From assembly GCA_964653655.1 (NCBI GenBank), contig CAZZHG010000005.1, positions 2,631 to 66,630 of the forward strand: a DNA stretch of 64,000 nucleotides, in the 5' to 3' direction. Within the stretch, counting starts at the first letter, position 1. Every line of letters starts with the position of its first letter. The translations under genes were made by a program, and so were the position numbers. Positions 199 to 27,373 of this stretch are shown here, piece after piece. The stretch is from an uncultured Pseudobdellovibrionaceae bacterium. GTDB lineage: Bacteria > Bdellovibrionota > FAC87 > UBA2466. The notes beneath the pieces are model-generated. The model worked only from the letters and a program-made list of their open reading frames with translations, did not search any database and was not told the DNA's origin.

Positions 199-3100
199 AT
201 GCGCCTCGCCCGACTCTTTCTCTCTCTAATGATGTCAGTCGCGCCGCTTTCCGCGGACGAAGCGCACGATTCCGCGGCGACCGACGCCGGCTCGACCGAG
301 ATTACGACGGCCTATCCTTACGATCTCCAGCAGTGCCGCTTTCTGAAACGCGACAAGGGTTACTACTTTTTGGAGAAGGATTGGCACTTCCGCCAGACAG
401 GGCTCGATCTGTTTCGCAAGCATCCGCTCGTGAAGCGGGCGGATTACAGCAAGATTCAGCTGGGAATACTCGACACCCCGATTCGGGCGTCGGAAAACCC
501 GAAGGCCGGAAAACGGGTGAAGGCAGCTTCGAACGCCACCGCCGACGACCAGGACACCTTCCATGGAACTCACGTCGCGGGCATCGCCGCTTCGAAAACG
601 GTCGGCGTAAATCCGCGTTTGCCGCTAATTTCTCATCCGCTCGATTTTGAATGGACGATCTTCTCTCCGAGCATCGTAAACGCCTTGATCGCCGCCGGTA
701 AGGATCCCAAGACAAGAGTGGTTAACCTTTCCATCCACGCGCTCGAACACCCGCTCATCAAAGAGCAGGTGCTGGAGCTGACGAAGAAAGGCGTTTGGGT
801 CGTCTACGCCGCGGGAAACAACGGCGAAGTAAACGTCGGAGACAGCGCGCTTCTCAGAGAGCTGTCGCAGGTTCCCGAGCTCTTCTCCATCGGCGCGCTC
901 AACTACTTCGGAACCCCCGCATCATTCAGTAATCACGGCTCGAGCGTCGATTTCTACGCGCCGGGCGAGAGGATTCAGTCTCTTAACGCCGACTACGTTC
1001 CCGGAGAGAAAAAATCCAAAGCGAAGGCGGTGGCGGACGGAACGAGCATGGCGGCGCCTTACGCTTCGGCCGTACTTGCCACCATGCGGGCGATCGAGCC
1101 CTCTCTCACCGCGGAAGAAGCCTTGGAGCTCATCAAGGAGACGGCGATTCTCAGAGGCACGAAGGAAGTCGTGTCTCAGATTAACCCGTACCTCATCGTT
1201 TCCTATCTGGAGGCAATCCGTCTCGCCCGCCTGAAGCAGGAATGCAAGAAGCTGGTCTCCTGTTTTCCCGCGGCGAAGCGCGCCATTCAGGAGAAGGCGG
1301 AAGCTCTAGCCACGGCCCTCAAATCGCCGGAAAACAACAACTGCGACGAATGGGAGAAATTCCAAAATCAGCTTCGCCAAGGCTACTTCCTTACTCGCGG
1401 AAGAGATCCCCGTTTCAGCGGACCGCTCGTTCGCCTCTCCCAAAATGCCCCCCGGGGAAAAGCTGCGGAATCCGTTCTGTACACTTCGGGCGTCGCTCAG
1501 GAGCGGGCGCTCCCGGAGTTCATGGCCGATCACGGCGGCCTACTCGCAAAGGAAGAGGGAGAAGCCTCGAAAGCTTTCTTCGACGGCCGGCCGGACAAGC
1601 TGACCAAGGATGAGCTGGAGGTATCGTTCTCCAATCTCGACGCCATCTGGAAACGTTGTGAGAACTTCTTCTTCGTCCAAACCGACAATGGATTCTGCCA
1701 CGAGATGTTCCACGTCATGCCGAAGTCGTTGAAGCTCGCCTTGGCGAAAAGACTCGTCGATGCCAAGAAGCCGCTTTCGTCGATAAACCTGCTTCGAACC
1801 AACTTCCGGCTCTACGAGGACCCGGCGTCGCTACCCCTGCACAATGCGCTAGTGCCGCTCGCCATCGAGGGAATGGAGAAAAAGGTCCTCACTTCGACCG
1901 AAGCCGAGCACATGCTCGAAGAACTTCCGGAGCTTGCCGAGCAGGCCAGAAAGCAGGTGCTCCCCCTCCTGGAATCCTGCCTGAAAAGCCCCATCGCCGA
2001 GGAGCACAAGTACTGCCGCCGGTACATTGCCCGGGCCAAACTCTATCTGACCGCCGACTCCACGGCGGCGGACGACGAGAATGCCGCCAAGGAAATCGCC
2101 AAGGAATACGACATTGCCCTTCCCTACGCCGCTCTTCGAGTTCAAATCGAACGCGCCAGGGCCGGATTTTTCGACGAAGGAAAGATGGCGAACGTGTTGC
2201 TACGGCAACTCGCCGAGTGGAAGGAAATCGACGCGCCCTACACGAAGAAAGAGGAGAACCACGAGTTCGGAGCGCGCAAGGAGCTCTTCAACGACTGGCT
2301 GGAAGTGGCGAAGAGCCCCTTTTACGGCAAGCTAGTGGGCCAGATTCTCGCCAACCCGGCGAACCTGAAAGTCCTGGACCAGTTGCTTCACGGCAAAACG
2401 GCATTCCCCGATTCGGCGTGGGAAGGTTTCTTCCCGCTCGCCCAGCTGGAGCCGAAGGACCGCAAAGCCCTGCTGGAGGGGATCGCCGAACACTGGACCC
2501 TCAACGATTCAACGAGGGCGAAGCGCTACTTCACCCTGCTACAAGCGAACTCGGATCTACCGGAGGCGGCAAGCGTCCTCGAAGGTCTCAAGAAGAAGGA
2601 TCAGCCTACTCCCTTTTGGAAGGCGGCTCGGCGAAGTTACCTGCAACATGCCGCCGAAACGGCGACCGGTCCGACACCCGCTCTCGCGCAGCTTCTGGAT
2701 GAAACGCCGAAGAGCGAGCATTGGCTGACCCTGGCGTACCTCGACAAGGATTCGGCCGCCAAGGACCCCGAGTTCCTGAAACGTCTGGCGAAGATCTCTG
2801 AAGGAGCTCCCGCCGATTCCCTGCTCGCCACGGAGCTACTCGAGTGGATGAGCGTAAGCCTTCTGGGACAGCCCAAGGTCGAGACCAGCAACGCCATCGC
2901 GCCCATTCTGATTCCTAAGCTCGCCGAACTTTTTCGGGCGAGGGGACGATGGAACGAGAGCGGCGCACTCATTCCGGGCATCGGAACGAGTCTAAATCGG
3001 CTGTCCGAACGCCGGCCCCATCGATTCGCCCAATCGATTTTCCAGTTCGAAAAAATGCTCGCGGACGAAAAGTGGCTGACGGCGGACGACACACCAGAGG

Positions 3101-3552
3101 CGGATGACGAGCGGAAACTGGAGTCCATCTATCGGCGAAAAGATCTGTTTCTGGCGTTGAACACACTGACCAGCTCCGTCCAGGGCGACGCCTATCTGCA
3201 AAGCCACCCGAAAATGCTCGAATGGATGGTGAAGACGGCAACCGATCCCGATACGGACGAGAAGCTGGAGAATGCGGCACTCAATCCGACGCTGACATTC
3301 GCGTTGAAAGACAAAATCCCCGAAAAGTTGGGACCGGCGACCCGGACTCCCAACTGGCTCCTCGAAGTCACCTGGCGGCAACCCAAAGCTACTCCCAAGA
3401 TAGTTCAACTTTACAAGGAGAGCCGCCGCCCCGAACTTCTGCAATCTCTTCAACAGGCCCTCCTGCTGTTTCCCGAAAGACTTAGTTACGACGTGAAAAG
3501 GGAAATCGAAGGGCTTCCCGTTAGCGATCCGCCGATCGGAGGGGGCCCATGA
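199..3552 (+). CDS. Secreted subtilisin-like serine peptidase (S8 family) with a roughly 750-aa C-terminal extension of unknown function.
   Basis: Signal peptide MRLARLFLSLMMSVAPLSA. The S8 catalytic triad motifs are present in order: D in LGILDTPIR, H in HGTHVAGIAAS, S in GTSMAAPYASAVLA. The long helical C-terminal region matches no family I recognise. Confidence 0.8.
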   Translation: MRLARLFLSLMMSVAPLSADEAHDSAATDAGSTEITTAYPYDLQQCRFLKRDKGYYFLEKDWHFRQTGLDLFRKHPLVKRADYSKIQLGILDTPIRASENPKAGKRVKAASNATADDQDTFHGTHVAGIAASKTVGVNPRLPLISHPLDFEWTIFSPSIVNALIAAGKDPKTRVVNLSIHALEHPLIKEQVLELTKKGVWVVYAAGNNGEVNVGDSALLRELSQVPELFSIGALNYFGTPASFSNHGSSVDFYAPGERIQSLNADYVPGEKKSKAKAVADGTSMAAPYASAVLATMRAIEPSLTAEEALELIKETAILRGTKEVVSQINPYLIVSYLEAIRLARLKQECKKLVSCFPAAKRAIQEKAEALATALKSPENNNCDEWEKFQNQLRQGYFLTRGRDPRFSGPLVRLSQNAPRGKAAESVLYTSGVAQERALPEFMADHGGLLAKEEGEASKAFFDGRPDKLTKDELEVSFSNLDAIWKRCENFFFVQTDNGFCHEMFHVMPKSLKLALAKRLVDAKKPLSSINLLRTNFRLYEDPASLPLHNALVPLAIEGMEKKVLTSTEAEHMLEELPELAEQARKQVLPLLESCLKSPIAEEHKYCRRYIARAKLYLTADSTAADDENAAKEIAKEYDIALPYAALRVQIERARAGFFDEGKMANVLLRQLAEWKEIDAPYTKKEENHEFGARKELFNDWLEVAKSPFYGKLVGQILANPANLKVLDQLLHGKTAFPDSAWEGFFPLAQLEPKDRKALLEGIAEHWTLNDSTRAKRYFTLLQANSDLPEAASVLEGLKKKDQPTPFWKAARRSYLQHAAETATGPTPALAQLLDETPKSEHWLTLAYLDKDSAAKDPEFLKRLAKISEGAPADSLLATELLEWMSVSLLGQPKVETSNAIAPILIPKLAELFRARGRWNESGALIPGIGTSLNRLSERRPHRFAQSIFQFEKMLADEKWLTADDTPEADDERKLESIYRRKDLFLALNTLTSSVQGDAYLQSHPKMLEWMVKTATDPDTDEKLENAALNPTLTFALKDKIPEKLGPATRTPNWLLEVTWRQPKATPKIVQLYKESRRPELLQSLQQALLLFPERLSYDVKREIEGLPVSDPPIGGGP

Positions 3553-3857
3553 GAGCTCTACTCCTCCTATTGGCGTTTTCGCTAAGCTCGCTTGCCGACG
3601 AGAAACCTTTAGTCACCGTCGTTTTCAACAATCCGGTTTCCTGCGGACAGGCGATTCAGATCGTCCGTTCGGTACCCGTCTCTCTCAACTGCAACCGGGA
3701 TCGGCGGGCCGATTACGCCTATTCCGTCGTCCCCATCGGCGTGGCTCCCGTCGGAAAAATCCTGGGTCAGCTACGCCGGCTGCGGGGAGTCCGCCGTGCC
3801 GAGCTCTCCGTCGGCGAAGGCGGAACCAAGCTCCCCACCCTGCCCGGCGGCTACTAA
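3549..3857 (+). CDS. Small secreted protein translationally coupled to the S8 peptidase; possible cognate inhibitor or chaperone (speculative).
   Basis: Its start codon overlaps the stop of the S8 gene in ATGA. The product begins with signal peptide MRALLLLLAFSLSSLA. Confidence 0.5.
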   Translation: MRALLLLLAFSLSSLADEKPLVTVVFNNPVSCGQAIQIVRSVPVSLNCNRDRRADYAYSVVPIGVAPVGKILGQLRRLRGVRRAELSVGEGGTKLPTLPGGY

Positions 3858-3924: not shown

Positions 3925-4818
3925 ATGACTCTGGACCAGTTGAGATACTTCGCCGCCGTGGCCACCTACCAGCACGTAGGCCGAGCCGCGAATGCGGTTG
4001 CCATCAGCCCCAGCGTTATCAGCGCTTCCATTTCCTCTCTCGAAGAAGAGCTCAACTGCGAACTGTTCCGTAAGCGCGGCCGCGGAATCGAGCTGACTCC
4101 GGACGGAGAGCGCCTACTCGAAAAAAGCCGGACCATTCTGTCGGGAGTCGACGGCCTGAAGGCCGAAATGAAGCGCGAGCCGGAATCGCTTTCCGGCCGC
4201 TACCGTCTCGGCGCCAGCCACTTTCTTTCGTCGAGACTGATGTTTCAGGGATGGCACGAGCTGCAGAAGAAACACCCGCGTCTCGTGGTCGACATGCATT
4301 CCATGAACACGGTTCACGCCATCGCCGAAGTGCTGTCGGGACGGCTCGATCTCGCCGTCTGCATCGGTCCGCTCAAGCACCCTGCTCTCTCAGAATATCC
4401 CCTCCACCGCGGCGACTTGGTGGTGGTCGTTCGCAAGGGACACCCGGTTCTGGAAAAGAGCCAGCGCGATCAAATTCGATTTCTCGCCGAGCATCCGGCG
4501 GTCATCCACAAGTCCTCGCAAGGCGTGGACGTTTGTGAAACGCACCCGGTGTTCGACCGCCTCGGCTTCCAGCCGAAGATAGACATCTACTTCGACAGCG
4601 ACGATATCGCCGTGCAAACGGTGCTTTTGTCCGATCGCTGGAGCTTTCTGCCCGACGCCGTCGCCTCGTCCCACGCGGAAAAGCTCAGCGTGATTCGTTT
4701 GCCGCGCACCGCCGGTACCGCGCCCTACCACATCAGCGCTCTCATTCACCGGGAACGGGGCAACGATCGGGTACTCCAGGCCCTGATCCAGACCCTCAAG
4801 GACCAGACCGTAAGCTAG
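3925..4818 (+). CDS. LysR-family transcriptional regulator.
   Basis: N-terminal LysR HTH (MTLDQLRYFAAVATYQHVGRAANAVAISPSVISASISSLEEEL...) followed by a roughly 200-aa substrate-binding domain. Total length 297 aa. Confidence 0.85.
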   Translation: MTLDQLRYFAAVATYQHVGRAANAVAISPSVISASISSLEEELNCELFRKRGRGIELTPDGERLLEKSRTILSGVDGLKAEMKREPESLSGRYRLGASHFLSSRLMFQGWHELQKKHPRLVVDMHSMNTVHAIAEVLSGRLDLAVCIGPLKHPALSEYPLHRGDLVVVVRKGHPVLEKSQRDQIRFLAEHPAVIHKSSQGVDVCETHPVFDRLGFQPKIDIYFDSDDIAVQTVLLSDRWSFLPDAVASSHAEKLSVIRLPRTAGTAPYHISALIHRERGNDRVLQALIQTLKDQTVS

Positions 4819-6672: not shown

Positions 6673-8655
6673 TCAACGGGAACCGCGCGGATTGGAGCGG
6701 CGTTCGGCGAGCGCGGCCCGGCCCATGAAGGCGAACAGCGTCTGAATGAGCTGATTGTTACGGCGGCTGCCCAGGTAATTTCCAATCAGTCCGAAGGTGA
6801 TGAGCAGACAGGTAAGCGTCGAAAGCACCTTCGCCCCTGAGTAGTCGTCCATCCAGTGGGCGAACAGGTGCAGCAGCAAAGCCCCGAGCAGCGGAACATA
6901 GCTCGTCAACCGGTTATAGAGGCGAGTCGTCTGCGCGACCATGCCCATCTCGATACGAGCTTGCGCCTGGACGTCCGACTCCTGTTTCCACAGCATGGGA
7001 TACAAGACCCGCACGCAGATGAACTGGATGAAGAGGCTCGAGTACCCGAGCGCCACGAGCCAGGCGAACAGGAACGAAACCATGAAATGCGCGAACACCG
7101 GGACCGCAAGCGCGCCCGAGTTCAGGTGGATGAAGAGCGGAAAGAGAACGCTCGAGGGCACCCAGCCTATCGTCGTAACGAGAGCGACCACCGCCGGAAG
7201 GCGAAGCACTCTCTTTCTCAAGAGCGCCTGCTTTTCCAAGGAGAGATCCGTTCGCTTCACGTACGGCAGAATTCCCCTGAGCGCCCAAACCCAGATGCCG
7301 AGACAAACCGCGTAAACGACCGGGTTGTAGACCACCATGAGCGATTTGAAATACGCCTGTTGCACCGACGACAATCGGCTCACAATCTCCAGCTGGTTGT
7401 ATAGGATGTTCACGGCGCTCGCCATTATCTGGGGCACGAGGCCGTAGAGAACGAGTCCGGTAAGAGGACTGCGAAAGCACACCGCCGCGAACCAGTTTCT
7501 GGGCGGCAGCTCCTTGTCGATGCGATAGCGCTCCAAAGCTCCCTTCAGGGCTTTCGCGAACGCACCGGCATCGGCAAATCTCTTCTCGGGATCCTTCTCC
7601 AGCGCCTTATCCAAAACGGTTTTCCAGGGCGCCTCGTCCCGGCAGGGGGGATCCCCGGCGAGGGCCAACCATTCCTTCAATACAATGGCGAGCGAGTAGA
7701 CGTCGGCGCGGCGATCGAGCTTTTTAATCGCGGCCGCCCGGTCTTCGGCGACAAACATCGCTTCCTGCTCGGGCGCCATGTATGCCTTCGTTCCGCCGAT
7801 TTGCCCGGAAGTACCGGCCACGTCTTCGAGCGAAAGAGACACATTGAAATCGCTGAGGAGAAACCGGCCGTAGAGATTGAGCAGGATGTTGGCCGGTTTG
7901 ACGTCGAGGTGAAGCACTCCCTGCTGATGGGCATACTGCAAAGTGTCCGCGAGCCGCGCTCCCGTCCACATCACCATCTCGAAGTAGTCGAGCTTCGCGA
8001 GCATCTCCCGAAACTGGAGACTCGACGGATGAAAGGGCACTTGATCCAGAATCTGCCCGTCGAGAATCTCGAGCACCGCCGCACCCGAGAGCTTTGATTT
8101 CGGAAACGCCCGAAGCTTTGTGAGAATCGTTTCGAGCGTCGCCCCGGGGATGTACTGCATGCACATGAAACGCAGGTTCCGGGCGGAGTCCACCGTGTCC
8201 GAGAACACTTTCACGATGTGATCGTGTTCCAGGGGCGCCATGAGGCGCGCCTCGCGGCCGGAGTTGCGGGACACTTTCAGAGCGACTTCCCGGCCGAGAG
8301 AGATTTGCCGGGCGAGATAGACATGGGCGATGCCGCCCCGGCCGAGACTACGCACGATCTCGAAGTCGCCGACGACGTCGCCCGTGGAGAACTCGGGAAG
8401 GCCTCCCTCGTCGAGCGCGATTCGTTCCAGCAGTTTCGGTCCGACGGGATTGGCGAGAAAAGTCCCCGAGCGCTCGTGGGACTCCGCGAGAGATTTCACT
8501 TCCTCGCTGAGGCGCGCGTCTTCGTGGCCGAGGGCCTCGAAGTACTCCGCCCTCGCCTCTTTACTCAAGGCGAGCGCGCGCTCGAGGCATTCGGCGACCC
8601 GATCCTGAAAGTCGGTGGCGACTTCAGTCTTTAGTTTGTTCTGTGCTGAGCTCAC
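6673..8655 (-). CDS. Membrane-anchored Ser/Thr protein kinase (Hanks-type), with a roughly 90-aa N-terminal extension and a C-terminal polytopic membrane domain.
   Basis: Kinase motifs are present: GxGxxG-like RSLGRGGIAHVY, the catalytic loop HLDVKPANILL, and the activation segment GTKAYMAPE. The C-terminal roughly 250 aa contains multiple hydrophobic helices. The start codon lies 32 bp inside the 3' end of the ECF sigma gene. Confidence 0.85.
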   Translation of the reverse strand: MSSAQNKLKTEVATDFQDRVAECLERALALSKEARAEYFEALGHEDARLSEEVKSLAESHERSGTFLANPVGPKLLERIALDEGGLPEFSTGDVVGDFEIVRSLGRGGIAHVYLARQISLGREVALKVSRNSGREARLMAPLEHDHIVKVFSDTVDSARNLRFMCMQYIPGATLETILTKLRAFPKSKLSGAAVLEILDGQILDQVPFHPSSLQFREMLAKLDYFEMVMWTGARLADTLQYAHQQGVLHLDVKPANILLNLYGRFLLSDFNVSLSLEDVAGTSGQIGGTKAYMAPEQEAMFVAEDRAAAIKKLDRRADVYSLAIVLKEWLALAGDPPCRDEAPWKTVLDKALEKDPEKRFADAGAFAKALKGALERYRIDKELPPRNWFAAVCFRSPLTGLVLYGLVPQIMASAVNILYNQLEIVSRLSSVQQAYFKSLMVVYNPVVYAVCLGIWVWALRGILPYVKRTDLSLEKQALLRKRVLRLPAVVALVTTIGWVPSSVLFPLFIHLNSGALAVPVFAHFMVSFLFAWLVALGYSSLFIQFICVRVLYPMLWKQESDVQAQARIEMGMVAQTTRLYNRLTSYVPLLGALLLHLFAHWMDDYSGAKVLSTLTCLLITFGLIGNYLGSRRNNQLIQTLFAFMGRAALAERRSNPRGSR

Positions 8656-9199
8656 GGAAGAGCCACGCCCTCGCCATGGTCCAATCCCGCTTCACGGTGG
8701 CGGGGGACGTTTTGGTGACTTCTGCGATCTCCTCGATGCTCAAGCCCCCGAAAAAACGAAGCTCGACCACGCGGGCCCGGCGCTCGTCTTCCTTTTCGAG
8801 TTTCTCCAACGCCTCGTGCACGGCTTGAATGTCGAGCCCTTCTTCCTTCGAAAAATTGATGTTCTCCTCGAACGTCACGCGGAACGCCCCGCCTCCCCGC
8901 TTGTCGCGGTTCTTGGCCTTTGCGTGATCCATCAGCACCCAGCGCATCAGCTTCGCCGCGGCCGCGAAGAAGTGCGCACGGTTTTCCCAGCGCACCTCTT
9001 TCTGATCGACCATTTTGAGGAAGGCTTCGTTCACGAGCGCCGTGGGTTGCAGCGTGTGGCCGGGCCTTTCCTTGCGAAGGTAGGCGGCCGCAATCCGGCG
9101 AAGTTGATCGAGCACTTGAGGCAGTAGTGCCTCCAGCGCCTTCTCATCTCCTTGGCGGTAGTTTTCTATGAGCTCGGTGACCGACGCGGGCTTTCCCAT
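8624..9199 (-). CDS. ECF-type RNA polymerase sigma factor (sigma-70 regions 2 and 4).
   Basis: 191 aa. Region 2-like helix near the N-terminus. The C-terminal region-4 HTH reads IEEIAEVTKTSPATVKRDWTMARAWL. A GGAGGA RBS precedes the start. The 3' end overlaps the kinase gene. Confidence 0.8.
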   Translation of the reverse strand: MGKPASVTELIENYRQGDEKALEALLPQVLDQLRRIAAAYLRKERPGHTLQPTALVNEAFLKMVDQKEVRWENRAHFFAAAAKLMRWVLMDHAKAKNRDKRGGGAFRVTFEENINFSKEEGLDIQAVHEALEKLEKEDERRARVVELRFFGGLSIEEIAEVTKTSPATVKRDWTMARAWLFRELSTEQTKD

Positions 9200-9334
9200 G
9201 GGCTCCTCCGATAGGGCTTCCCCTTCTTATCGGCCAAATAATCTCAATAATTTAGGGCATTTAGACACGATGAGCCATTTCGGAGGCCGGCGTCTCATTC
9301 CCCAGTAAGAGCAACAAAACCGGAGGTACTCAAA

Positions 9335-9721
9335 ATGAAACGCCCTCATAGCCAGACCGCTGAACTTCTTCGAAACATTGGTGAAACGGACACCACCCGC
9401 CGCGACTTTCTCGTGAAGTCGCTGCTCGCTCTCACGGGCGTTTCCATCAGCCTGATGGGCTGCGGCAAAAGCTCCGCGAGCAACACGTCGGCCGCGGGGG
9501 ATTTCGGTTCCGTCTCCGCCAATCACGGTCACGAGGCTTTCATCAGCACGGCCCAGCTCTCCGCGGGCGACTCGCTGATTCTCGACATCACCGGCGACTC
9601 CGACCATCCGCACACGGTCACCCTTAGCGCCGGTCAGGTGCAATCGATCGCAAACGGAGCGCGGGTAAGTGCTCTGTCGACGAATGACGCCGGTCACACC
9701 CACATCGTCACCTTCAACTAA
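9335..9721 (+). CDS. Tat-signal lipoprotein with His-rich motifs; possible metal-binding periplasmic protein.
   Basis: Twin-arginine motif TRRDFLVKS followed by a hydrophobic segment and the lipobox LMGC. The mature part carries HGHEAF, HPHTV and HTHIV motifs. Confidence 0.55.
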   Translation: MKRPHSQTAELLRNIGETDTTRRDFLVKSLLALTGVSISLMGCGKSSASNTSAAGDFGSVSANHGHEAFISTAQLSAGDSLILDITGDSDHPHTVTLSAGQVQSIANGARVSALSTNDAGHTHIVTFN

Positions 9722-10476: not shown

Positions 10477-10992
10477 ATGTTCAAACTGCATCTGGCACTG
10501 GCAACACTGTTTCTTTCCGCGACAATGGCGAACGCGTTCCCGCTTTGGGATCAACCGATCTCGAACCCGGCCCCCGTTCCGGCGCAATGCACGGATTTCT
10601 CGGGCAAGTTCATCGGTGGTTGCGATATCGACGGAAACCGCGTGGAAGAGACGATGGAAGTAAAGCAAAGCGGTTGTGAAACGATCACGATCGCGGGCAA
10701 AACGATTTCCATCGGCGGTCTCTTCACGACGACGTCGGCCTCTGCCGCCTCGAAGACCGAGCTGGGTAAGGCGGAAGCCTGCACCATGACGCTCGTGTGG
10801 GACGCGAAGAAGGAGCACCTGCTCTTTCACGGCGGCAAGATGATCCAGAAGGTCGGAGCCGTTCAGGAAAAAGGCGAAATCAGAACGCTCGACGGCAGCT
10901 TGAAGCTGCAAGCGGATAAGCTGTCTCTCGTGCTGAACGAGTCCGGCGCCGCGGTTCGCAAAGTAGCGAGCTGTGAATATACCCGGCAGTAA
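10477..10992 (+). CDS. Secreted hypothetical protein.
   Basis: Signal peptide MFKLHLALATLFLSATMANA. The remainder has ordinary composition with several Cys. Confidence 0.6.
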   Translation: MFKLHLALATLFLSATMANAFPLWDQPISNPAPVPAQCTDFSGKFIGGCDIDGNRVEETMEVKQSGCETITIAGKTISIGGLFTTTSASAASKTELGKAEACTMTLVWDAKKEHLLFHGGKMIQKVGAVQEKGEIRTLDGSLKLQADKLSLVLNESGAAVRKVASCEYTRQ

Positions 10993-11092
10993 GATGCCAG
11001 GTCGGGCGCCCGTTTCCTTTCACCCAAGAGGAAGCGGGCGCTCTCTTTTTCTCCCCGTTGTCCGGCGAACCGATCCACCTTATATAGAGGGG

Positions 11093-11452
11093 ATGACGAA
11101 GGACACGGACGATCTCGTCGCGGGCATCCGCCGGCATCAGGCCGCGCAGGAAAAAACTTACCGCGCCCGCGCGCTCGGGATGTACCCGCACATCTGCGGC
11201 CGTTGCGCGCGTGAGTTCAGCGGCAAGCGTTTGAAGGAGCTCACCGTCCACCACCGCGATCACAACCACGACAACAACCCGCCCGATGGCAGTAACTGGG
11301 AACTGCTCTGCATCTATTGCCATGAGAACGAGCACGCCCGGAACGCGGTCGCCGACGCCTATACGGGCGAGAACGACGGTGGGATTAAGAAGCCGGAATT
11401 GAAGCATTCCCCGTTCGCGGGACTTGCCGACCTCCTTAACAAGAAGAAGTAA
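11093..11452 (+). CDS. yajD: HNH nuclease, YajD family.
   Basis: The motif YPHICGRCAREFSGKRLKELTVHHRDHNHDNNPPDGSNWELLCIYCHENEHA matches the YajD HNH fold (Cys4 zinc knuckle plus HH/N). Start chosen at MTKD with a GAGGGG RBS, giving about 119 aa. The ORF's upstream in-frame extension is probably not translated. Confidence 0.75.
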   Translation: MTKDTDDLVAGIRRHQAAQEKTYRARALGMYPHICGRCAREFSGKRLKELTVHHRDHNHDNNPPDGSNWELLCIYCHENEHARNAVADAYTGENDGGIKKPELKHSPFAGLADLLNKKK

Positions 11453-11626
11453 GCGCAGCCTAACTAACTGAAATACCTCGACACGTAGTGTTAACAATTG
11501 GCAACAGCTTCTCCGAACTCATAACTTCACGCGTTGACGAGTCGGCCCAAATTGATACGGTGCATTAAATCCACCGGCGCTTCCCGCTTTAACAGGGGCG
11601 GAAAGGGCTTATTGAAGGGGGCTTCA

Positions 11627-13174
11627 ATGAATCGGTTCTCGTTTGTCGTCGTTTCGGCGTTTGCTTCGGCATTGGCGTTCGCGGGCCCGGCTAAGTACCT
11701 CATTTCGGGCGGCGGCTTCTACGCCGGCCATTCCGAGGTGGTACTCGAGAAGAACGTGGAGCTCTTTCACGAAACCTCCGGCTGGTTCAAGATTCCGGCC
11801 GGCAACATCGTGACCCTCTTCGCCGCCGGTAACGATACCGCGCAGGACGACATTTCCGAGATCGACCCGAACTTCGGGGACGACGAGAAGCTCTTCTCGC
11901 ACCTCTTCGCCGACTCCAACAGCCCCGAGTTGATGCTTCGCCACAACAAGCTGCAGGGCCTCGCCGGCGGATCGAACGGTCCCGAGCTCACGGCTCAGCT
12001 GAAGGCGGCCGCCGCCAGCACGAGCGTGACGACTCCTTTTCGTTTTTACTACACGGGCCACGGAGCCCCGACCCAAGGGTTCTTTCCTCCGCCCGCAAAT
12101 CCAGCGGCCGGCGTGATCGTGCCGATCGGCTCGGTTCCGAACAGCTACATGGTGAAGTACCGCGACAATTATCTCGCGCTGTGGAACCAGACGAAGATGA
12201 CGGCGCCCGAGTACACGACGCTGCTCGATACTTTCACCGCCGATACTCCGATTCAGACCGTGATGGTTCAGTGCTATTCGGGCGGTTTCGCCCAGTTGAA
12301 TTTCGAAAAGGGTGACGCCGGCGGAAATCTCTCTAAAGCGAACCGTTGCGGTTTCTTTGCGACGGTTCCTTCGCGGGTCGCGGCCGGTTGCTCGGCCGAT
12401 ATCAATGCCCGTGAAGAGTACAGCCCCTACTTCCTCGCCGCGGTTCGCGGAAAGACGGAAAAGGGCGTGGCCGTGAACGCCGATTACGATGGTAACGGCA
12501 CGGTTACTTCGGATGAAGGACATGCGTTCGTGGTTCTCCACGAGAACGCCATCGACGTTCCGATTTCCACCTCCAGCCAGATGCTGCGGGAGAAGATCGA
12601 AAGCATTCCGATGGTCGGCGCGATGGCTCCGTATAGCTGGTTTGAAAAGCGCATGGACAAGGTCGAGAAGGCGATTGCCGACGGCCTGGCGCGCGAGCTG
12701 GGGATTGATTTGACGACGGCGAGCCCGAGCCCGATCGCCGCCATCCGGCAGAAGATCACCGAGACGAACAAGGCCTGGGGCGAGGCGAAGAACTTGTCCG
12801 GTACGGCCTCGCAAGTGGTGTCGAAGATTCTCACTCCGATTGCCCGCGAGCTTCGTCCGGATCACCCGGTCTTCCAGATCGAGTACCCGGCTCGTGACGA
12901 GAAGGATCCCGTGGTGCTGAAGGCCGTCGCGGAAGCGCGTGCGGCTTTGAAAGCTCACAAGGGCTTCGCGCAGGCTTTCGCCGCGTACAAGGCGTTGCTC
13001 AAGTCGTATGAAGATGCGACGGCGGTTCAGCACACGATGGCGAAGTGGGAGCGTCTTGGTTACCTGCTCGAGACGAAGACGCTGGAGTATGCGCTCGAAG
13101 CTCAGAACAATGCTGAGTGGACGCAGAAGTACCAGCAGCTCAAGACCTGCGAGCACCAGACGTTCTTTCAGTAG
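11627..13174 (+). CDS. Secreted protein with a caspase/legumain-like (clan CD) His-Cys dyad; putative cysteine peptidase.
   Basis: Signal peptide MNRFSFVVVSAFASALAFAGPA. A hydrophobic strand followed by HG (RFYYTGHGAP), and roughly 65 aa later a hydrophobic strand followed by QC (TVMVQCYSGGF). This spacing and context is typical of clan CD peptidases. The assignment is by motif only. Confidence 0.45.
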   Translation: MNRFSFVVVSAFASALAFAGPAKYLISGGGFYAGHSEVVLEKNVELFHETSGWFKIPAGNIVTLFAAGNDTAQDDISEIDPNFGDDEKLFSHLFADSNSPELMLRHNKLQGLAGGSNGPELTAQLKAAAASTSVTTPFRFYYTGHGAPTQGFFPPPANPAAGVIVPIGSVPNSYMVKYRDNYLALWNQTKMTAPEYTTLLDTFTADTPIQTVMVQCYSGGFAQLNFEKGDAGGNLSKANRCGFFATVPSRVAAGCSADINAREEYSPYFLAAVRGKTEKGVAVNADYDGNGTVTSDEGHAFVVLHENAIDVPISTSSQMLREKIESIPMVGAMAPYSWFEKRMDKVEKAIADGLARELGIDLTTASPSPIAAIRQKITETNKAWGEAKNLSGTASQVVSKILTPIARELRPDHPVFQIEYPARDEKDPVVLKAVAEARAALKAHKGFAQAFAAYKALLKSYEDATAVQHTMAKWERLGYLLETKTLEYALEAQNNAEWTQKYQQLKTCEHQTFFQ

Positions 13175-13983: not shown

Positions 13984-14169
13984 TTACAGGAGCGGGTCGT
14001 TGTTGCTTCTCGTTGGGACGTCTAGGCGCCCAGGATTTTGCGCTTCGCGGTCCGTTTCGATGTCGGAGACACTGCTGTCTCTCTTGCCGGCTCCTTGGCC
14101 GATTTCGGGTTTAGGTTCTGGAACCTTCCCGCTCATCGGCTTTTTTTGGTCTTTTTTTTCGCCCATCAT
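13984..14169 (-). CDS. Small hydrophilic protein (61 aa), hypothetical.
   Basis: A strong RBS, GAAAGGAGG, is followed by ATGATG. The product (MMGEKKDQKKPMSGKVPEPKPE...) is charged and probably disordered. The gene ends at the bidirectional terminator. Confidence 0.45.
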   Translation of the reverse strand: MMGEKKDQKKPMSGKVPEPKPEIGQGAGKRDSSVSDIETDREAQNPGRLDVPTRSNNDPLL

Positions 14170-14355
14170 GGCCTCCTTTCGCTTACTACGTGTTGGTTAC
14201 ACAGGGCCTATAGTGCATGGTGCGTTCCAACTTTCCGTGCGTGCAATTGGCGGCCTGGAGCGGGCGCCTGCGGCGACATGTCTCAATTCGGCAGCGACGA
14301 GCTGGGCCGCTTGGGTTACTTTCCTGAGGAAAGTGAACCAGGGGGTGCATTCGCC

Positions 14356-14652
14356 ATGAGAAAGTCGGCTTGGATATTCGTGCTCGCTGCTTTAGCCGAG
14401 GCCGTCTACTTTTTCTTGGAATACCGGAGCCTCGGTTTCCCGGATGGCCACCTGACTTCGCTCGATCGCATTCGCCAGATCATGTACCCAATCTTCATCG
14501 TGCTGAGCTTGATGTATTGCGTGCACGTTTACCTGATTCAGCAGCACCGCGGATTCTTTCGGATGTTGTTCTGGCTGCTATTCCTGAACGCGCTCTTCTT
14601 CGGCTGGAATCATTATGCGGGGATGTATTTCGAGAATGGGACGGGTGGGTGA
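14356..14652 (+). CDS. Small integral membrane protein (about 98 aa), hypothetical.
   Basis: The internal Met of the listed ORF. Three hydrophobic helices: IFVLAALAEAVYFFL, IMYPIFIVLSLMYCVHVYLI and MLFWLLFLNALFFGW. Confidence 0.5.
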   Translation: MRKSAWIFVLAALAEAVYFFLEYRSLGFPDGHLTSLDRIRQIMYPIFIVLSLMYCVHVYLIQQHRGFFRMLFWLLFLNALFFGWNHYAGMYFENGTGG

Positions 14653-14807
14653 GATTTCCTTTCCCTGAACGCCCACCAGACCTCCCCCAAATAATATAAC
14701 TATTTCAGTTATGTATCGCCTGTTGCTTCCCAAGCGAAAACCCCTGACCCAAGTTGATCAAATTGCCGCATCGTGTTAGTCGTTTGGAACACGGTTTGGG
14801 GGGAGAC

Positions 14808-15080
14808 ATGGGAAAAAAATCTAAGAAGCTCGCGTATTGGCTTGTCGCCGTTTTAGTTACGCCTATGGCGAGGGCGTTTGATATTCCGACACAGTTCCAA
14901 ATCCGGCCAAAGAGAGGTCCTTTCAGCCAAGACAATTGCCATCATTGTCAGTGTGCGCGCCCTGATCGGTATCAAACGCAAAGCTTTGAGTTCCGAGCGG
15001 GAGCTCCGCTGATTCGATCAGGAAACTGGTCCGAGTCGAATGAATCTAAGAAGAAGGGCTTCATCAAAGAAGAGAAATAA
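14808..15080 (+). CDS. Secreted small Cys/His-containing peptide (candidate precursor or signalling peptide).
   Basis: A GGGGGGAGA RBS precedes an ATG at 14808. The Sec signal MGKKSKKLAYWLVAVLVTPMARA/FD has an AxA cleavage site. The roughly 65-aa mature part contains DNCHHCQC. It is the first gene of the low-G+C island. Confidence 0.5.
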   Translation: MGKKSKKLAYWLVAVLVTPMARAFDIPTQFQIRPKRGPFSQDNCHHCQCARPDRYQTQSFEFRAGAPLIRSGNWSESNESKKKGFIKEEK

Positions 15081-15085
15081 TCGGA

Positions 15086-16588
15086 ATGAAGATCCAAAGA
15101 ACGAGGAGATCGATTCTCTTTGCAACGATTGGATCTGTTGTAGTGGGACTCTCAGTGAGTAGTCTGCGAGAAAAACCAATTCAGGAAAAAAGACTGCGAG
15201 CGATCTATCCGATCGGCATGCTCAGGCGAGACGAACGTCTCTTCGACCCCACGAATCTATGGTCAGTTTATCACTACTACCTACAAGAAAATCTCGCCAG
15301 TTGCCTAGTGATCGATTCGACTAAAACCACCTCAGGTTATGAACCAAATCTAGCGACGTCTTGGGAACAAATGAGTCCGACCCAATGGCGCTTCCATATT
15401 GGAAAAGAATTGCGTTGGTCAGATGGTTCGGAGCTTTCTGGCAAACACCTAGAGGAATACTTTCTGGCCCTCTCCCATCGAAACTCGAGACATCTAGTGG
15501 CGCTTAAGTCGCTCGTGACCGCTCAATGGGACGAAGATGCGAGAACTCTAGAATTAGCTTTTTCAAGGCCGACATCACAAACTTTGTTGCACGAGCTTTC
15601 TCTTTCCGATGCCGCTATTCTTCACCCTACGAATGTCGATAGTTCCTGGTCCATCACGTCGGGACGATACTCCGTAAGTCATTTTGATGTCGAAAAGCAG
15701 ACTCTCGAACTGCGGGTAAACACCTATCATCCGAAGTACGAGACAAATTCACCAAACGCCGTGGAGCTATTCCAACCGAAGGAAACCAATTGGAGCCTCG
15801 CGAAAGAAAACGCCGACCTCTGGCTAGTGCCAACCCCTTCATTCTCAGAAGAATTTCGACGACGAGTTACAAGTGCCCCAGCTAGGATAGAAGGCCCCCC
15901 CACAGTAATCTACTATTTCGAGTTCAATCTTAACCACCGGTTGGGAAAATCTACAGAAGCCCGAGTCGAATTTGCTTCAGCGATTCACGAGTTCTTCGAC
16001 AAAGCTGTTCCAAAAATGCCGGAAGCGACTCCGGACCGCCAATTCGCTGCACCCGGCTACCCATCGAGACTTCAAAACTCTGCAGTACAAGAAATCGAAC
16101 CGAAAGCACCTATTTCCATTCTGAGTGGAGAGACGATATCGATATCGATGTACTACTTCGGCGAGGAATACACGTGGCTTTCCACTGAATTTGCCTCCTT
16201 CCTAAGAAATAGAGGAGTAAACGCGACACTCTCCTACAATCGCTATAAGAAAAATGAGCCGCAAGATTGGTTTGCACGTGCTTCAATGTTTAGTGGAAAC
16301 CAGAGAGATTCTGTAGGGTCGTGGAGTTTCCTTCTCTCAAATCCGGACATCGATGTCGGGAGAAAATACCCTGATCTAACCGCCGATCTTAAGAAGGCCT
16401 CGGAAACGTCAGTCGCTTCAGAGAGAGAAAGCATTCTTCAGAGAATTCACTCCCGATTCATTGAACGTGCTCTAGTTGTGCCCTTCCTTCTTGAACGACG
16501 TTACGCAATACACTCTGAAAGGATCTCCCTAGAGCATTGGAACGAATTTGATCTGCGTTCACGTTTCTATGACATTACATGGAAATGA
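15086..16588 (+). CDS. Periplasmic solute-binding protein, family 5 (peptide/nickel-type SBP), Tat-exported.
   Basis: N-terminal TRRSILF Tat-like motif followed by a hydrophobic segment. The segment LATSWEQMSPTQWRFHIGKELRWSDGSELSGKHLEEYF matches the conserved SBP_bac_5 core (L.ESWE....T..F.LRKGV.F.DG..F.A.DV). Length 500 aa. Confidence 0.65.
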   Translation: MKIQRTRRSILFATIGSVVVGLSVSSLREKPIQEKRLRAIYPIGMLRRDERLFDPTNLWSVYHYYLQENLASCLVIDSTKTTSGYEPNLATSWEQMSPTQWRFHIGKELRWSDGSELSGKHLEEYFLALSHRNSRHLVALKSLVTAQWDEDARTLELAFSRPTSQTLLHELSLSDAAILHPTNVDSSWSITSGRYSVSHFDVEKQTLELRVNTYHPKYETNSPNAVELFQPKETNWSLAKENADLWLVPTPSFSEEFRRRVTSAPARIEGPPTVIYYFEFNLNHRLGKSTEARVEFASAIHEFFDKAVPKMPEATPDRQFAAPGYPSRLQNSAVQEIEPKAPISILSGETISISMYYFGEEYTWLSTEFASFLRNRGVNATLSYNRYKKNEPQDWFARASMFSGNQRDSVGSWSFLLSNPDIDVGRKYPDLTADLKKASETSVASERESILQRIHSRFIERALVVPFLLERRYAIHSERISLEHWNEFDLRSRFYDITWK

Positions 16589-16598
16589 AAGTGCCGCC

Positions 16599-17429
16599 AT
16601 GAAGACTTTCACAACCAGGTACGTTGCAACCTATGGCCACCTTTCCATCGGCAGCAAATGTACTCTGCAGCTAGACACCGGGGGTGCGGCAATCGGTTAT
16701 GGAGTTGGAACGACTCTCAGAACTGCGTCCAGAAGAGCCTTCTCTGAAGCTTGGGAAAGACACGTCATGAGTAACATGGCGTGTTTTGATCAGTCGATTA
16801 CCTCATCGAACGGATTCGCTGCGCATTGGTCGAAGGAAACGGCCCTAAGAAACAGTCTAGAAGAGTTGGTTGAACGCCGGATGGTGCTGCGAGCGTGGTC
16901 AACGGGTAGAGGATGGAACAGATCTGGTACGCTCGATTTGTGTGCCCGAGCGATTGTTTGGAAGGCCGAAGCCCAACACTGGAGAATTAACTGGTATCAG
17001 ATTCAAGTACCCGCCCAAAATCACCGCGTTCTCGTCCTGTTGGCCAGACACAAGACTCTTGGCGCATACTTCGATTCCGCCTCGAACGCACCCGGCTCCG
17101 CGCGAAAGCTCGCGCAAGGATTAGATCTATATCTGAACCGTATCGAGCGTTCCCCTTCTTTAGCGGAGCTTCCCGACTTTGCCACACCTGCCTCTCACCT
17201 GGCCTTCTATCGCAATCCCAGCAATCTTCAGGCCTTTGATTTCCTCGAAAACACATCTTCATGTGAAACACTCCCCGATGAGAGAACGAAATCACCCCCA
17301 CAGCAGAGCATCGTAAGCAACTCTCCTGGAATGCCGTATGTCGCCCGTTCGTGGAATAATGACTGGCCCCAACTGAGTTGGGGCGCGAAGAGCGGAGGAG
17401 CGAACTCGTGGCCTCACCCCCTGGCATAG
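16599..17429 (+). CDS. YcaO-superfamily protein, unusually short (about 277 aa).
   Basis: GYGVGTTLRTASRRAFSEAWERH matches the YcaO ATP-binding signature G(K)GxTxxxAxxSAxxEAxER. The start at MKTF lies immediately after the SBP stop. The alternative listed start at 16548 overlaps the SBP gene. Confidence 0.6.
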   Translation: MKTFTTRYVATYGHLSIGSKCTLQLDTGGAAIGYGVGTTLRTASRRAFSEAWERHVMSNMACFDQSITSSNGFAAHWSKETALRNSLEELVERRMVLRAWSTGRGWNRSGTLDLCARAIVWKAEAQHWRINWYQIQVPAQNHRVLVLLARHKTLGAYFDSASNAPGSARKLAQGLDLYLNRIERSPSLAELPDFATPASHLAFYRNPSNLQAFDFLENTSSCETLPDERTKSPPQQSIVSNSPGMPYVARSWNNDWPQLSWGAKSGGANSWPHPLA

Positions 17430-18655
17430 GTCTCTACAAATCCCGGCAGGTCTGGGCGTGGACCACATCTACGCTACTAGTTTTGTCGCTGATAGGGGTA
17501 CTACTCTGGACACAACACCTAAGACATTCATTCGGACGAATCCTTGAATCAGAGACGAAGCAGGCCATAGAAGCGACGCGGGAAGCAGTTCAGCACGGCA
17601 ACTTTCGGGCGTTTGTCGAATTGCTGGGTACAAGATTTTCCGACCCATACGTGAAAGTAGGATCCGCTTTCGGAAATCTCGAGATGGGCAGTCCAAGTGT
17701 TCTGCCAATCTGTAGTATTCAATCGCTAGAGAGTACATCGATCAAGGTTTGCGGGCCTTCCCAAATACCTTGGAGTCAGGCTTCTATCATTCTATCTATA
17801 TTCCTCCTGCTTTCCTTCGGTGCCCGCTTAGTTCTGACGACTATCGAAGAAAAAGCCATCGCGTCAATGACCTCGACTTTTGCACACCTTGAGCTTCCAA
17901 ATCCCCTCCTAAGCGGGATGACCCCGTTGTTAGCCGGCGTGAGTGACTTGAGACGGTCGGTAGTAGACCTTCAGGAACGTGATCGACGGCTATCGAAAAA
18001 GGCTCAGCTCACAGAAACAGCCCAAAAGGTCGCCCACGATATTCGCTCCCCTCTGTCGGCGCTCAAGGTTTTGGCCTCGTCACCAGAGGAACTCAACAAG
18101 GAAGAAGGAAGGAATCTCTTCCGGATGGCTACCGCCAGACTTGTCGGAATTGTAGACGACTTTCGAGAAAAATCTGGAGACGACCTGGAGATCGTTGACT
18201 TGGTTCCTCTTCTTTCAAGTGGGGTTCAAGAAAAGCTCCTGGAACGAAGTAACCGGCGAGATGTCGCTCTAACGTTGAATATCGAAGCAAAGGAACTCAA
18301 CTGTCGCGTTGAATCCAAGCTCTTTCAACGAGTGTTGTCTAACCTACTCAACAACTCGTTCGAAGCGATACATAGCCGAGGTACCATTCAGGTCACCGCA
18401 GCTGTTCTAAAAGATTCAAAGATTAGGATCGAAATAGTTGATGATGGCGTAGGCATACCAGCCACTATTTTAAACATATTGCGCAAGGAACAGATCTCTT
18501 ACGGAAAAGTGAAGGGCTCAGGATTGGGGTTCAATTCCGCTAGAGAATGGATTCTGTGCTGGGGCGGAAGCATTTCGATCTCTTCCACAGAAAACGTCGG
18601 AACTAGCGTTAGAATCGAACTCCCTAGTAGCGACCTGCAAAGAGCGGGATTCTGA
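17378..18655 (+). CDS. Sensor histidine kinase with two N-terminal TM helices and a roughly 110-aa periplasmic loop.
   Basis: HisKA H-box AHDIRSPLSALKVL. HATPase_c N-box LSNLLNNSFEAI and G-boxes DDGVGIP and GSGLGF. The TM helices are LLVLSLIGVLLW and IILSIFLLLSFGARLVL. The start codon is uncertain and the listed start overlaps the YcaO gene's 3' end. Confidence 0.8.
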   Translation: MGREERRSELVASPPGIGLYKSRQVWAWTTSTLLVLSLIGVLLWTQHLRHSFGRILESETKQAIEATREAVQHGNFRAFVELLGTRFSDPYVKVGSAFGNLEMGSPSVLPICSIQSLESTSIKVCGPSQIPWSQASIILSIFLLLSFGARLVLTTIEEKAIASMTSTFAHLELPNPLLSGMTPLLAGVSDLRRSVVDLQERDRRLSKKAQLTETAQKVAHDIRSPLSALKVLASSPEELNKEEGRNLFRMATARLVGIVDDFREKSGDDLEIVDLVPLLSSGVQEKLLERSNRRDVALTLNIEAKELNCRVESKLFQRVLSNLLNNSFEAIHSRGTIQVTAAVLKDSKIRIEIVDDGVGIPATILNILRKEQISYGKVKGSGLGFNSAREWILCWGGSISISSTENVGTSVRIELPSSDLQRAGF

Positions 18656-25919: not shown

Positions 25920-26111
25920 TTGGTTTCTCCTTCGTTCGAGTTGGTTTTCAATCTCTTCATGATCAAATCTGACACGAAAAATTCTTCCGCCGGAAAATGG
26001 GTCCAAGTTGCCCGGAACAAAAGTTAAGGACTCGACTTCTGGTGACCGAAACCGCGGCGGGTTCATCGCCCTCGCCGCCGCCGTGGCATACTGATGCTTT
26101 AAAGGAAGAAG

Positions 26112-27101: not shown

Positions 27102-27373
27102 TCCGCTCCCTGACAGCCCGCTTGGACGTAGACCACTTTGTATACAGTCTAACCGCGCGAATTTCCGCCCTTCCACCGGTGAACTAACTTTAGCCGCCGT
27201 CCTTTCAGCCACTTTTCACGATCTGTACGGGCCGCCCAAACGAACTACACCTTTCGGGATTGAAGCCCGATTCCGGGTACCTACCTTTACTTTCCTGGAA
27301 ACTCCGCGCGGGTGGTACGGGGCTTGCTCTAACAGCAGGTAGTAACACCTTGGTTTTCGTCTTGGAGTGCAAC

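Follow-up and report, generated by a model that had tools for sequence, protein, structure and literature searches.

Control of a sigma factor of the extracytoplasmic function (ECF) type by a Ser/Thr kinase that takes the place of the anti-sigma factor is established knowledge, and the ECF43 group is even defined by a neighbouring gene for a Hanks-type kinase (PMC13147305, PMC8999054, PMC8103513, PMC7826278). In this group region 2.2 has lost its acidic DAED patch, the site of contact with the beta' clamp of RNA polymerase, and has uncharged residues and a conserved Thr instead (consensus QTTA); the motif reads STTA in EcfP and QATE in EcfK, and the Thr is phosphorylated by the kinase (PMC13147305, PMC8999054, PMC8103513, PMC7826278). 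Without the acidic patch a sigma factor should be inactive alone (PMC8999054), and activation comes about through phosphorylation of the Thr by the adjacent kinase, as described for EcfP with PknT and for EcfK with PknS (PMC8999054, PMC8103513, PMC13147305). Direct control of a sigma factor by phosphorylation has been studied in two systems only, and it is not known how the kinase recognises its sigma factor; PknS has an 83-aa N-terminal extension, invisible in the crystal and predicted to form three to four helices, the function of which is left unexplained in the structural paper of 2026 (PMC13147305).

Here we describe a pair of this kind in a stretch of 64,000 nucleotides from an uncultured Pseudobdellovibrionaceae bacterium (contig CAZZHG010000005.1, positions 2,631 to 66,630), which is referred to as the window in the following; all coordinates are those of the window. 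We consider it probable, judging from the sequences, that a sigma factor of the ECF43 type forms a two-gene operon with its cognate kinase, a Hanks Ser/Thr kinase bound to the membrane, and that the kinase activates the sigma factor by phosphorylation. The original prediction, made from the DNA of the window alone, had assigned the pair to a recognised group of sigma factors controlled by phosphorylation, and membership of the known kinase-regulated ECF43 kind is supported by the family scores, by a QPTA motif that contains Thr53 and by the adjacent kinase. The comparison draws on the structure of the two genes and their overlap, the families to which they are assigned, the conservation of residues, predictions of fold and topology, and statistics of co-occurrence.

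The sigma factor and the arrangement of the two genes

The features of the gene pair are as follows.

8624..9199, minus strand: ECF sigma factor gene, ECF43-type, 191 aa, ATG start
6673..8655, minus strand: Hanks-type Ser/Thr kinase gene, 660 aa, GTG start
8624..8655, minus strand: overlap of 32 bp between the 3' end of the sigma gene and the 5' end of the kinase gene, probable translational coupling
9038..9049, minus strand: region 2.2 motif Q51-P52-T53-A54 in place of the acidic DAED (translation of the coordinates)
9041-9043, minus strand: Thr53, predicted phospho-acceptor (position in the QPTA motif)
8873..8875, minus strand: Thr109 in the linker between sigma2 and sigma4, candidate for a second phosphosite, perhaps equivalent to EcfK T106
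8452..8649, minus strand: N-terminal three-helix module of the kinase, residues 3-68, proposed sigma-docking adaptor (model and co-occurrence)
7510..8373, minus strand: kinase catalytic domain, residues 95-382 (catalytic residues conserved in the family)
7987..8112, minus strand: insert of about 40 aa, specific to the family, between hinge and helix E, with two extra helices (comparison with PknB and model)
7888..7911, minus strand: catalytic loop HLDVKPAN, of the non-RD (non-arginine-aspartate) type, Leu standing for the Arg of HRD (translation)
7843..7851, minus strand: DFN replacing the Mg-binding motif DFG (translation and alignments)
6694..7503, minus strand: membrane domain of six helices at the C-terminus, residues 385-654, not covered by any Pfam family (hydrophobicity and model)

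The sigma gene is preceded by a strong Shine-Dalgarno sequence (GGAGGAG, 5 nt 5' of the ATG) and ends with the stop codon 8624-8626. In the frame of the kinase the upstream stop is at 8694, and the GTG at 8655 is the sole in-frame start before a TTG at 8568. The GTG is the credible start because initiation at the TTG would cost the first helix of the conserved N-terminal module, and the overlap of 32 bp is therefore real. Both open reading frames (ORFs), and their overlap by 32 bp, had been described correctly in the original prediction. The kinase frame of 10 related loci has its first start codon between -56 and +4 nt from the stop codon of the sigma gene, so overlap or abutment, which is kept at every locus of the window's clade, is a conserved property. 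Downstream of the kinase there is a convergent gene for a BNR-repeat lipoprotein, the end of which lies 3 bp from the kinase stop codon, and the operon therefore consists of two genes, which are presumably co-translated.

That an anti-sigma gene is lacking had also been pointed out before. A scan of the flanking genes and of large ORFs of the window revealed no anti-sigma domain of Pfam, small unannotatable ORFs being beyond its reach, and the observation of a sigma/kinase pair with no anti-sigma gene detected nearby is thus confirmed. The same flanking genes and scanned large ORFs contain no PP2C phosphatase. Apart from the sigma factor and the kinase themselves, the neighbouring proteins gave no BLASTP match between orthologous loci, and an Rfam scan of the whole window gave no matches.

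The sigma factor consists of sigma2 and sigma4 only, as is typical of the ECF type. It matches PF07638 with 194.7 bits (cut-off 21.1, E=1.8e-57, residues 5-185) and, over nearly its whole length, TIGR02999 with 216.3 bits (cut-off 126.15, E=3e-64), two models that we take to correspond to ECF43. Region 2.2 reads H48-T-L-Q-P-T53-A-L-V-N-E-A-F60, i.e. both acidic residues of the DAED patch are lost and the uncharged QPTA stands in their place. In a weak alignment with the solved ECF sigma factor 6dxo, Q51-P52-T53-A54 are found opposite T-A-E-D, with Thr53 at the position of the Glu; E. coli RpoE (DVPDVVQEAF) presumably gives the same register. A group with a known anti-sigma factor encoded elsewhere, which would have spoken against the original prediction, is not what the two models and the motif point to.

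A search for a conserved Thr in region 2 or in the linker had been proposed as a check of the original prediction. The position of Thr53 is invariant in all 13 sigma factors that are encoded directly upstream of related or analogous kinases, with the pattern [QD][PAT]T[AVS]LV[HN]E around it. The column of the linker residue T109 contains S, T or E in 12 of these 13 aligned sequences, and its likeness to T106 of EcfK is one of position alone.

The kinase: N-terminal module, catalytic domain and membrane domain

The first part of the kinase is a module of about 65 aa that is modelled as three helices (3-29, 32-45 and 47-68) and has the pattern W..v..LF..A..L...eR..fL......eV.sLL......FL.xP. Hidden Markov models (HMMs) were built for this N-terminus, for the C-terminal domain and for the sigma factor, and all fetched loci (numbered L001 and so on) were scanned with them; the loci came from an alignment-based scan of contigs with a generic kinase pattern, among the matches listed, so the sampling is biased. 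An ECF43-like sigma factor is encoded directly upstream of the kinase in 13 of 13 loci with the module, as against none of the 27 evaluable loci that have a six-helix kinase without it, with flanks of about 1-5 kb (Fisher p=8e-11). Within the six-helix family the module occurs only in the window's clade, i.e. in the window, L001, L003, L008, L089-L092, L094, L098 and L099. It is also present in L031 (Gemmataceae) and L080 (a metagenome-assembled genome of Pseudomonadota), in kinases with quite different C-termini and canonical HRD and DFG motifs. The module is thus found in three unrelated kinase lineages, each time after an ECF43-like sigma factor. Moreover, its profile matches residues 7-54 of PDB entry 9EED (E=6e-4), which is PknS 1-364 of Xanthomonas citri.

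The catalytic domains follow a different course. That of the window kinase is 39-45% identical to those of six-helix kinases that have no such sigma factor, and 28-33% identical to the sigma-partnered ones of other lineages (33% to L031, 28% to L080); it is therefore the N-terminal module, and not the catalytic core, that tracks the partnership. Because of the co-occurrence described above the module is probably a sigma-docking adaptor, and the simplest reading of the sequences would be that domains were shuffled and that a family of membrane kinases which existed already acquired a portable sigma-adaptor module. Compared alone with Pfam (E<=10) and NCBIfam (E<=1), the module matches no anti-sigma family (zf-HC2, RskA and others) and nothing else that is meaningful, and a word-indexed search with its profile returned five unannotated fragments.

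Some of the fetched loci deserve a separate remark. At L033, L035, L041, L046 and L103 there are weak matches to the sigma HMM (18-30 bits) about 250-400 bp upstream of the kinase match (about 220 bp at L103); these Planctomycete kinases have neither the N-terminal module nor the six-helix domain, and the sigma matches probably represent other kinase-associated ECF groups. A DUF4423 protein is encoded next to the pair at L003.

The catalytic domain matches Pkinase of Pfam with E=1.1e-23. The AlphaFold2 model of the full-length kinase (predicted local distance difference test, pLDDT, 90.4; predicted template modelling score, pTM, 0.82) has the bilobal protein kinase fold, and the best Foldseek match is M. 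tuberculosis PknB (E=3e-12), PknB and PknI being at about 1e-11 with a target template modelling score of 0.7. The Hanks catalytic set is present: the G-loop glycines G105 and G107, K127 of VAIK, E135 of helix C, D251 of HxD, N256, D269 of DFx and E296 of APE. In family alignments of 25 and of 78 sequences G105, G107, K127, E135, H249, K253, N256, D269, E296 and R359 are invariant, even though mean column identity across the 78 diverged members is about 30%; D251 is invariant in the former alignment and conserved in at least 90% of the latter. A kinase domain devoid of catalytic residues had been named as a finding that would speak against the original prediction; all of them are retained, and their conservation across the 78 members looks like the pattern of an active enzyme.

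Three features set this catalytic domain apart. Firstly, DFG is replaced by DFN, which is invariant in both alignments and found in 86 of 89 family members. Secondly, the catalytic loop contains HLD, as in all 15 family members that bear the N-terminal module, the remainder having HRD or HCD; from what is generally known of non-RD kinases, such a loop suggests regulation by something other than phosphorylation of the activation loop. Thirdly, the segment between hinge and helix E extends over residues 179-235 in the window kinase as compared to only 18 residues in PknB, and the insert is modelled with helices at 191-200 and 210-221, with G191, D199 and R216 conserved.

The large polytopic membrane domain at the C-terminus, which the original prediction had suggested as a possible sensor, is borne out by six hydrophobic segments as well as by a model with six long helices (pLDDT 89.6, pTM 0.84), located at 397-427, 430-460, 473-513 (with a break at 485), 518-554, 562-601 and 605-644. 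If the kinase domain is cytoplasmic, the outward loops have about 3-6 residues and the inward loops are rich in Arg and Lys; there is no periplasmic domain and no tetratricopeptide repeat (TPR). Conserved polar and aromatic positions of the domain include N416, Y419, N420, W498, P506, S527, P553 and P588. Since there is essentially no extracytoplasmic part, the bundle, if it is a sensor, would pick up its signal inside the membrane or by way of a partner protein.

An exhaustive HMMER search with the C-terminal domain gave 724 clusters at 50% identity (E<=1e-3). In the best 150 of these 724 clusters nearly all proteins have 590-750 aa, with the domain at about 370-650, C-terminal to the kinase. 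A word-indexed search with the 280-aa membrane domain had found no match, which must be considered a false negative, as the full-length and HMMER searches gave hundreds; negatives of this kind are unreliable for hydrophobic queries. The family is found in Planctomycetota (Limnoglobus, Zavarzinella, Pirellulales) and Actinomycetota (Nocardia, Rhodococcus, Mycobacterium), where most members have no ECF43-like sigma factor upstream; the six-helix domain thus occurs outside sigma-linked kinases as well. Multi-spanning kinases are mentioned in a survey of the kinases of Planctomycetes, which does not describe the six-helix module (PMC11032199). Judged by its sequence, the window kinase belongs to a large undescribed family that is characterized by DFN, the insert and a six-helix bundle with almost no external loops, a family of 724 clusters with neither a Pfam model nor a close structural relative.

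Other members of this family show further arrangements. At L010, L026 and L029 (Nocardia spp.) the HMM of the C-terminal domain matches two long, partly overlapping stop-to-stop frames, which suggest two adjacent copies of the six-helix kinase, and there is no ECF43-like sigma factor nearby. The six-helix kinase P0084 of the Planctomycete locus L007 (4001-6271) has a different long N-terminal domain instead of the N-terminal module and is flanked by other ECF sigma genes at 7359-7958 and 2954-3604 (both on the minus strand). In one of these sigma factors region 2.2 reads G-T-S-D, so that the phospho-acceptor position is held by a Ser, a situation described for kinase-linked sigma factors of the ECF59/60 type. 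Other N-terminal domains may thus pair six-helix kinases with other sigma groups.

Proposed mechanism and competing explanations

The mechanism that we propose is the following. With the uncharged QPTA where the acidic DAED would hold the beta' clamp of RNA polymerase, the sigma factor would be intrinsically inactive. The six-helix bundle would hold the kinase in the membrane, perceive a signal in or at the membrane and report it, the signal coming either from the membrane itself or from a partner protein. The N-terminal module would recruit the sigma factor to the active site, and the cytoplasmic kinase domain would phosphorylate Thr53 and possibly Thr109 in the linker. The phosphate would supply the missing negative charge, so that the holoenzyme could form and the regulon be transcribed.

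It could be argued that the kinase is mainly a membrane-anchored anti-sigma factor, whose N-terminal bundle sequesters the sigma factor until phosphorylation or a conformational change releases it. The kinase gene does sit in the usual position of an anti-sigma gene, overlapping the sigma gene, and the module, a bundle of three helices in the cytoplasm, has roughly the dimensions of an anti-sigma domain, is carried by a membrane-anchored protein and strictly co-occurs with the sigma factor. We nevertheless regard this as unlikely: within the thresholds given above no anti-sigma family of Pfam or NCBIfam matches the module, sequestration would be redundant for a sigma factor that lacks the acidic patch and is expected to be inactive alone (PMC8999054), and the kinases studied so far activate, PknS being required for EcfK-dependent expression (PMC13147305). 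A mere scaffold or membrane tether, i.e. a catalytically dead pseudokinase, is suggested by the replacement of the Gly of DFG with Asn and of the Arg of HRD with Leu. Such a protein would hardly be expected to keep K127, E135, K253, N256, D269, E296, R359 and both glycines of the G-loop invariant in 78 members, together with D251 in at least 90% of them. The metal-binding Asp of DFx is among the residues kept, and non-RD kinases are generally active, so we hold this explanation to be quite improbable.

Slightly less probable still is that the two genes are merely adjacent, the sigma factor being under an unlinked anti-sigma factor or transcriptional control and the kinase having other substrates. 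Most kinases of the six-helix family do work without such a sigma factor, but the overlap or abutment is kept throughout the clade, the Thr of the phospho-acceptor position does not vary, and the N-terminal module, common to proven sigma kinases, appears exactly where the sigma factor is present. Finally, the kinase matches PD-T4-6 and mad6 of PADLOC and MADS6 of NCBIfam with E=1e-26 to 1e-41, which would point to a PD-T4-6 or MADS-like anti-phage defence system. All these matches are confined to the generic kinase domain, however; the N-terminal module alone matches none of them, neither the sigma factor nor the divergent lipoprotein described below matches PADLOC, and no other defence gene is adjacent. 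The identity as a defence system was rejected on these grounds, and we see almost no room for it.

Several points weigh against activation by phosphorylation as we propose it, or against the role given to the module. The assignment to ECF43 rests on Pfam and TIGRFAM models, on the motif and on gene context. The changes from DFG to DFN and from HRD to HLD are unusual, and a kinase of this type is only presumably active. The count of 13 versus 27 loci is phylogenetically non-independent and comes down to about three lineages, or four if PknS is added from the literature, and the HMM of the module derives from the clade of the window itself. The lack of an ECF43-like sigma factor does not mean that there is no sigma partner, as there are Planctomycete six-helix kinases with other ECF sigma factors nearby (L007). 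The membrane domain may do no more than anchor the kinase or help it to dimerise. Lastly, no -35/-10 dyad is found in more than two of six sigma upstream regions, and neither an autoregulatory promoter nor a regulon emerged from them.

Activation of the sigma factor by the kinase is still the explanation that we favour, and a broader proposal may be added to it. The N-terminal module could be a portable sigma-recruitment adaptor that defines the partner kinases of ECF43 across phyla, PknS included, and that was grafted here onto a previously sigma-independent Hanks family; the loop-less six-helix bundle, DFN and the insert would then mark an undescribed class of intramembrane sensors specific to Ser/Thr kinases. 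We offer this as a tentative idea, which we find possible but somewhat less than likely. What varies the established theme in this locus is the partner kinase, which is from an uncharacterised six-helix, DFN, non-RD family. There is a natural domain swap in that the same catalytic and membrane core occurs with and without the module, and with an ECF43-like sigma factor only in the former case, so that the docking hypothesis is directly testable. The adaptor hypothesis and the undescribed family of membrane kinases are what the locus adds.

Surroundings of the pair and comparison with known systems

Upstream of the sigma gene the window contains the following features.

9335..9721, plus strand: divergent gene for a His-rich predicted Tat (twin-arginine translocation) lipoprotein of 128 aa (motifs), membership of the system unproven
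9200..9334, no strand: divergent intergenic region of 135 bp, no promoters identified

The original prediction had mentioned the lipoprotein and had proposed that it shares the promoter region with the sigma gene. The ORF and its motifs are real, with a twin-arginine motif (TRRDFLV), an LMGC lipobox and three HxH motifs. Shared regulation found no support: the lipoprotein was not found beside the orthologous sigma-kinase pairs of related loci, and no shared promoter motif was detected. The protein has no Pfam, NCBIfam, PADLOC or PDB match. A mapping of promoter motifs, also suggested at that time, did not yield any: the scan of the intergenic region found no sigma-70-like site and no terminator, and no dyad is common to the six sigma upstream regions mentioned above.

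At L001 there is a gene (3999-4286, minus strand) divergent from the sigma gene at 4454 that encodes a secreted protein of 95 aa with repeats rich in Cys, His and Lys (KDHCKGK...), and a gene for a HupE/UreJ-type metal transporter lies 2 kb downstream in the same locus. Like the lipoprotein of the window, the 95-aa protein resembles a small periplasmic metal binder, although the two are not homologous. A metal link is possible for these divergent small proteins, but two cases only are not evidence.

A few other observations were made in the window. Positions 14001-18000 have a G+C content of about 0.50 as compared to about 0.59 elsewhere, and their ORFs encode an SBP_bac_5 protein, a short YcaO-like ORF (16548-17429) and a HATPase_c protein (17378-18655); this segment could have been acquired as an island, or it could be a small cluster resembling those for ribosomally synthesized and post-translationally modified peptides. 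Predicted proteases are unusually dense (199-3552, 24684-26360, 27260-29869, 36293-37165, 46831-48471 and 49243-51270) and include a subtilase (S8), three enzymes of the trypsin type, an astacin to which fn3/PhoD_N-like domains are fused and a tail-specific protease of S41, a density compatible with a predatory or proteolytic lifestyle. Together with the DUF4423 protein encoded at L003, the many secreted proteases may hint, as no more than a guess, at a predator resembling Bdellovibrio. A small gene for a stand-alone HNH endonuclease of 159 aa (PF01844, E=3.9e-11; 10973-11452, plus strand) is situated 1.3 kb away from that of the lipoprotein, and a LigD gene (40247-42319, plus strand), the product of which has a phosphoesterase, a ligase and a primase-polymerase domain, encodes a ligase of non-homologous end joining. 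Two pairs of ORFs on opposite strands overlap almost completely, namely 11534-13174 (plus) with 11624-13156 (minus) and 27260-29869 (plus) with 27329-30121 (minus). In the second pair Pfam domains (astacin) are found on the plus strand only, and the 930-aa minus-strand ORF is therefore a high-GC shadow ORF; in the first, the plus-strand ORF 11534-13174 has no Pfam support, in a scan that covered the plus strand.

The general features of the window pair can now be set against those of the systems known so far. EcfK/PknS of Xanthomonas citri (PMC13147305, PDB 9EED) has the same basic layout, with the sigma gene adjoining the gene of a membrane-anchored kinase. T51 of EcfK and T53 of the window sigma factor occupy the same position in region 2.2, and PknS has a helical N-terminal extension before the catalytic domain, as has the window kinase, in which three helices are modelled. 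PknS has one transmembrane helix and a periplasmic TPR domain, while the window kinase has six membrane helices and no periplasmic domain; PknS is a canonical kinase with RD and DFG, while the window kinase has HLD, DFN and the insert in the C-lobe. EcfK keeps one acidic residue (QATE), unlike QPTA in the window sigma factor, and the regulon of EcfK is a type VI secretion system, genes of which are not found near the window pair.

EcfP/PknT of Vibrio parahaemolyticus (PMC8999054, PMC8103513) is similar in that the sigma factor has no acidic residue at the DAED position (STTA, as compared to QPTA), a Thr is the phospho-acceptor (predicted in the window) and there is no anti-sigma factor. Its trigger is polymyxin, a membrane-active compound, which would fit a membrane-embedded sensor in the window kinase. 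Organism and regulon differ, and this comparison is based on review descriptions.

The nearest relatives of the kinase itself are the sigma-less six-helix DFN kinases of Planctomycetota and Actinomycetota. They have the same core (39-45% identity), DFN, the C-lobe insert and the six-helix bundle, but they are devoid of the N-terminal module, are not preceded by an ECF43-like sigma gene (0 of 27) and contain HRD or HCD rather than HLD; some of them carry other N-terminal domains. As regards the mode of sensing, the intramembrane-sensing histidine kinases of the BceS/LiaS type have a sensor that consists of membrane helices only, with minimal external loops. The resemblance of the window kinase to these proteins is one of analogy only, as the catalytic chemistry and the fold are different.

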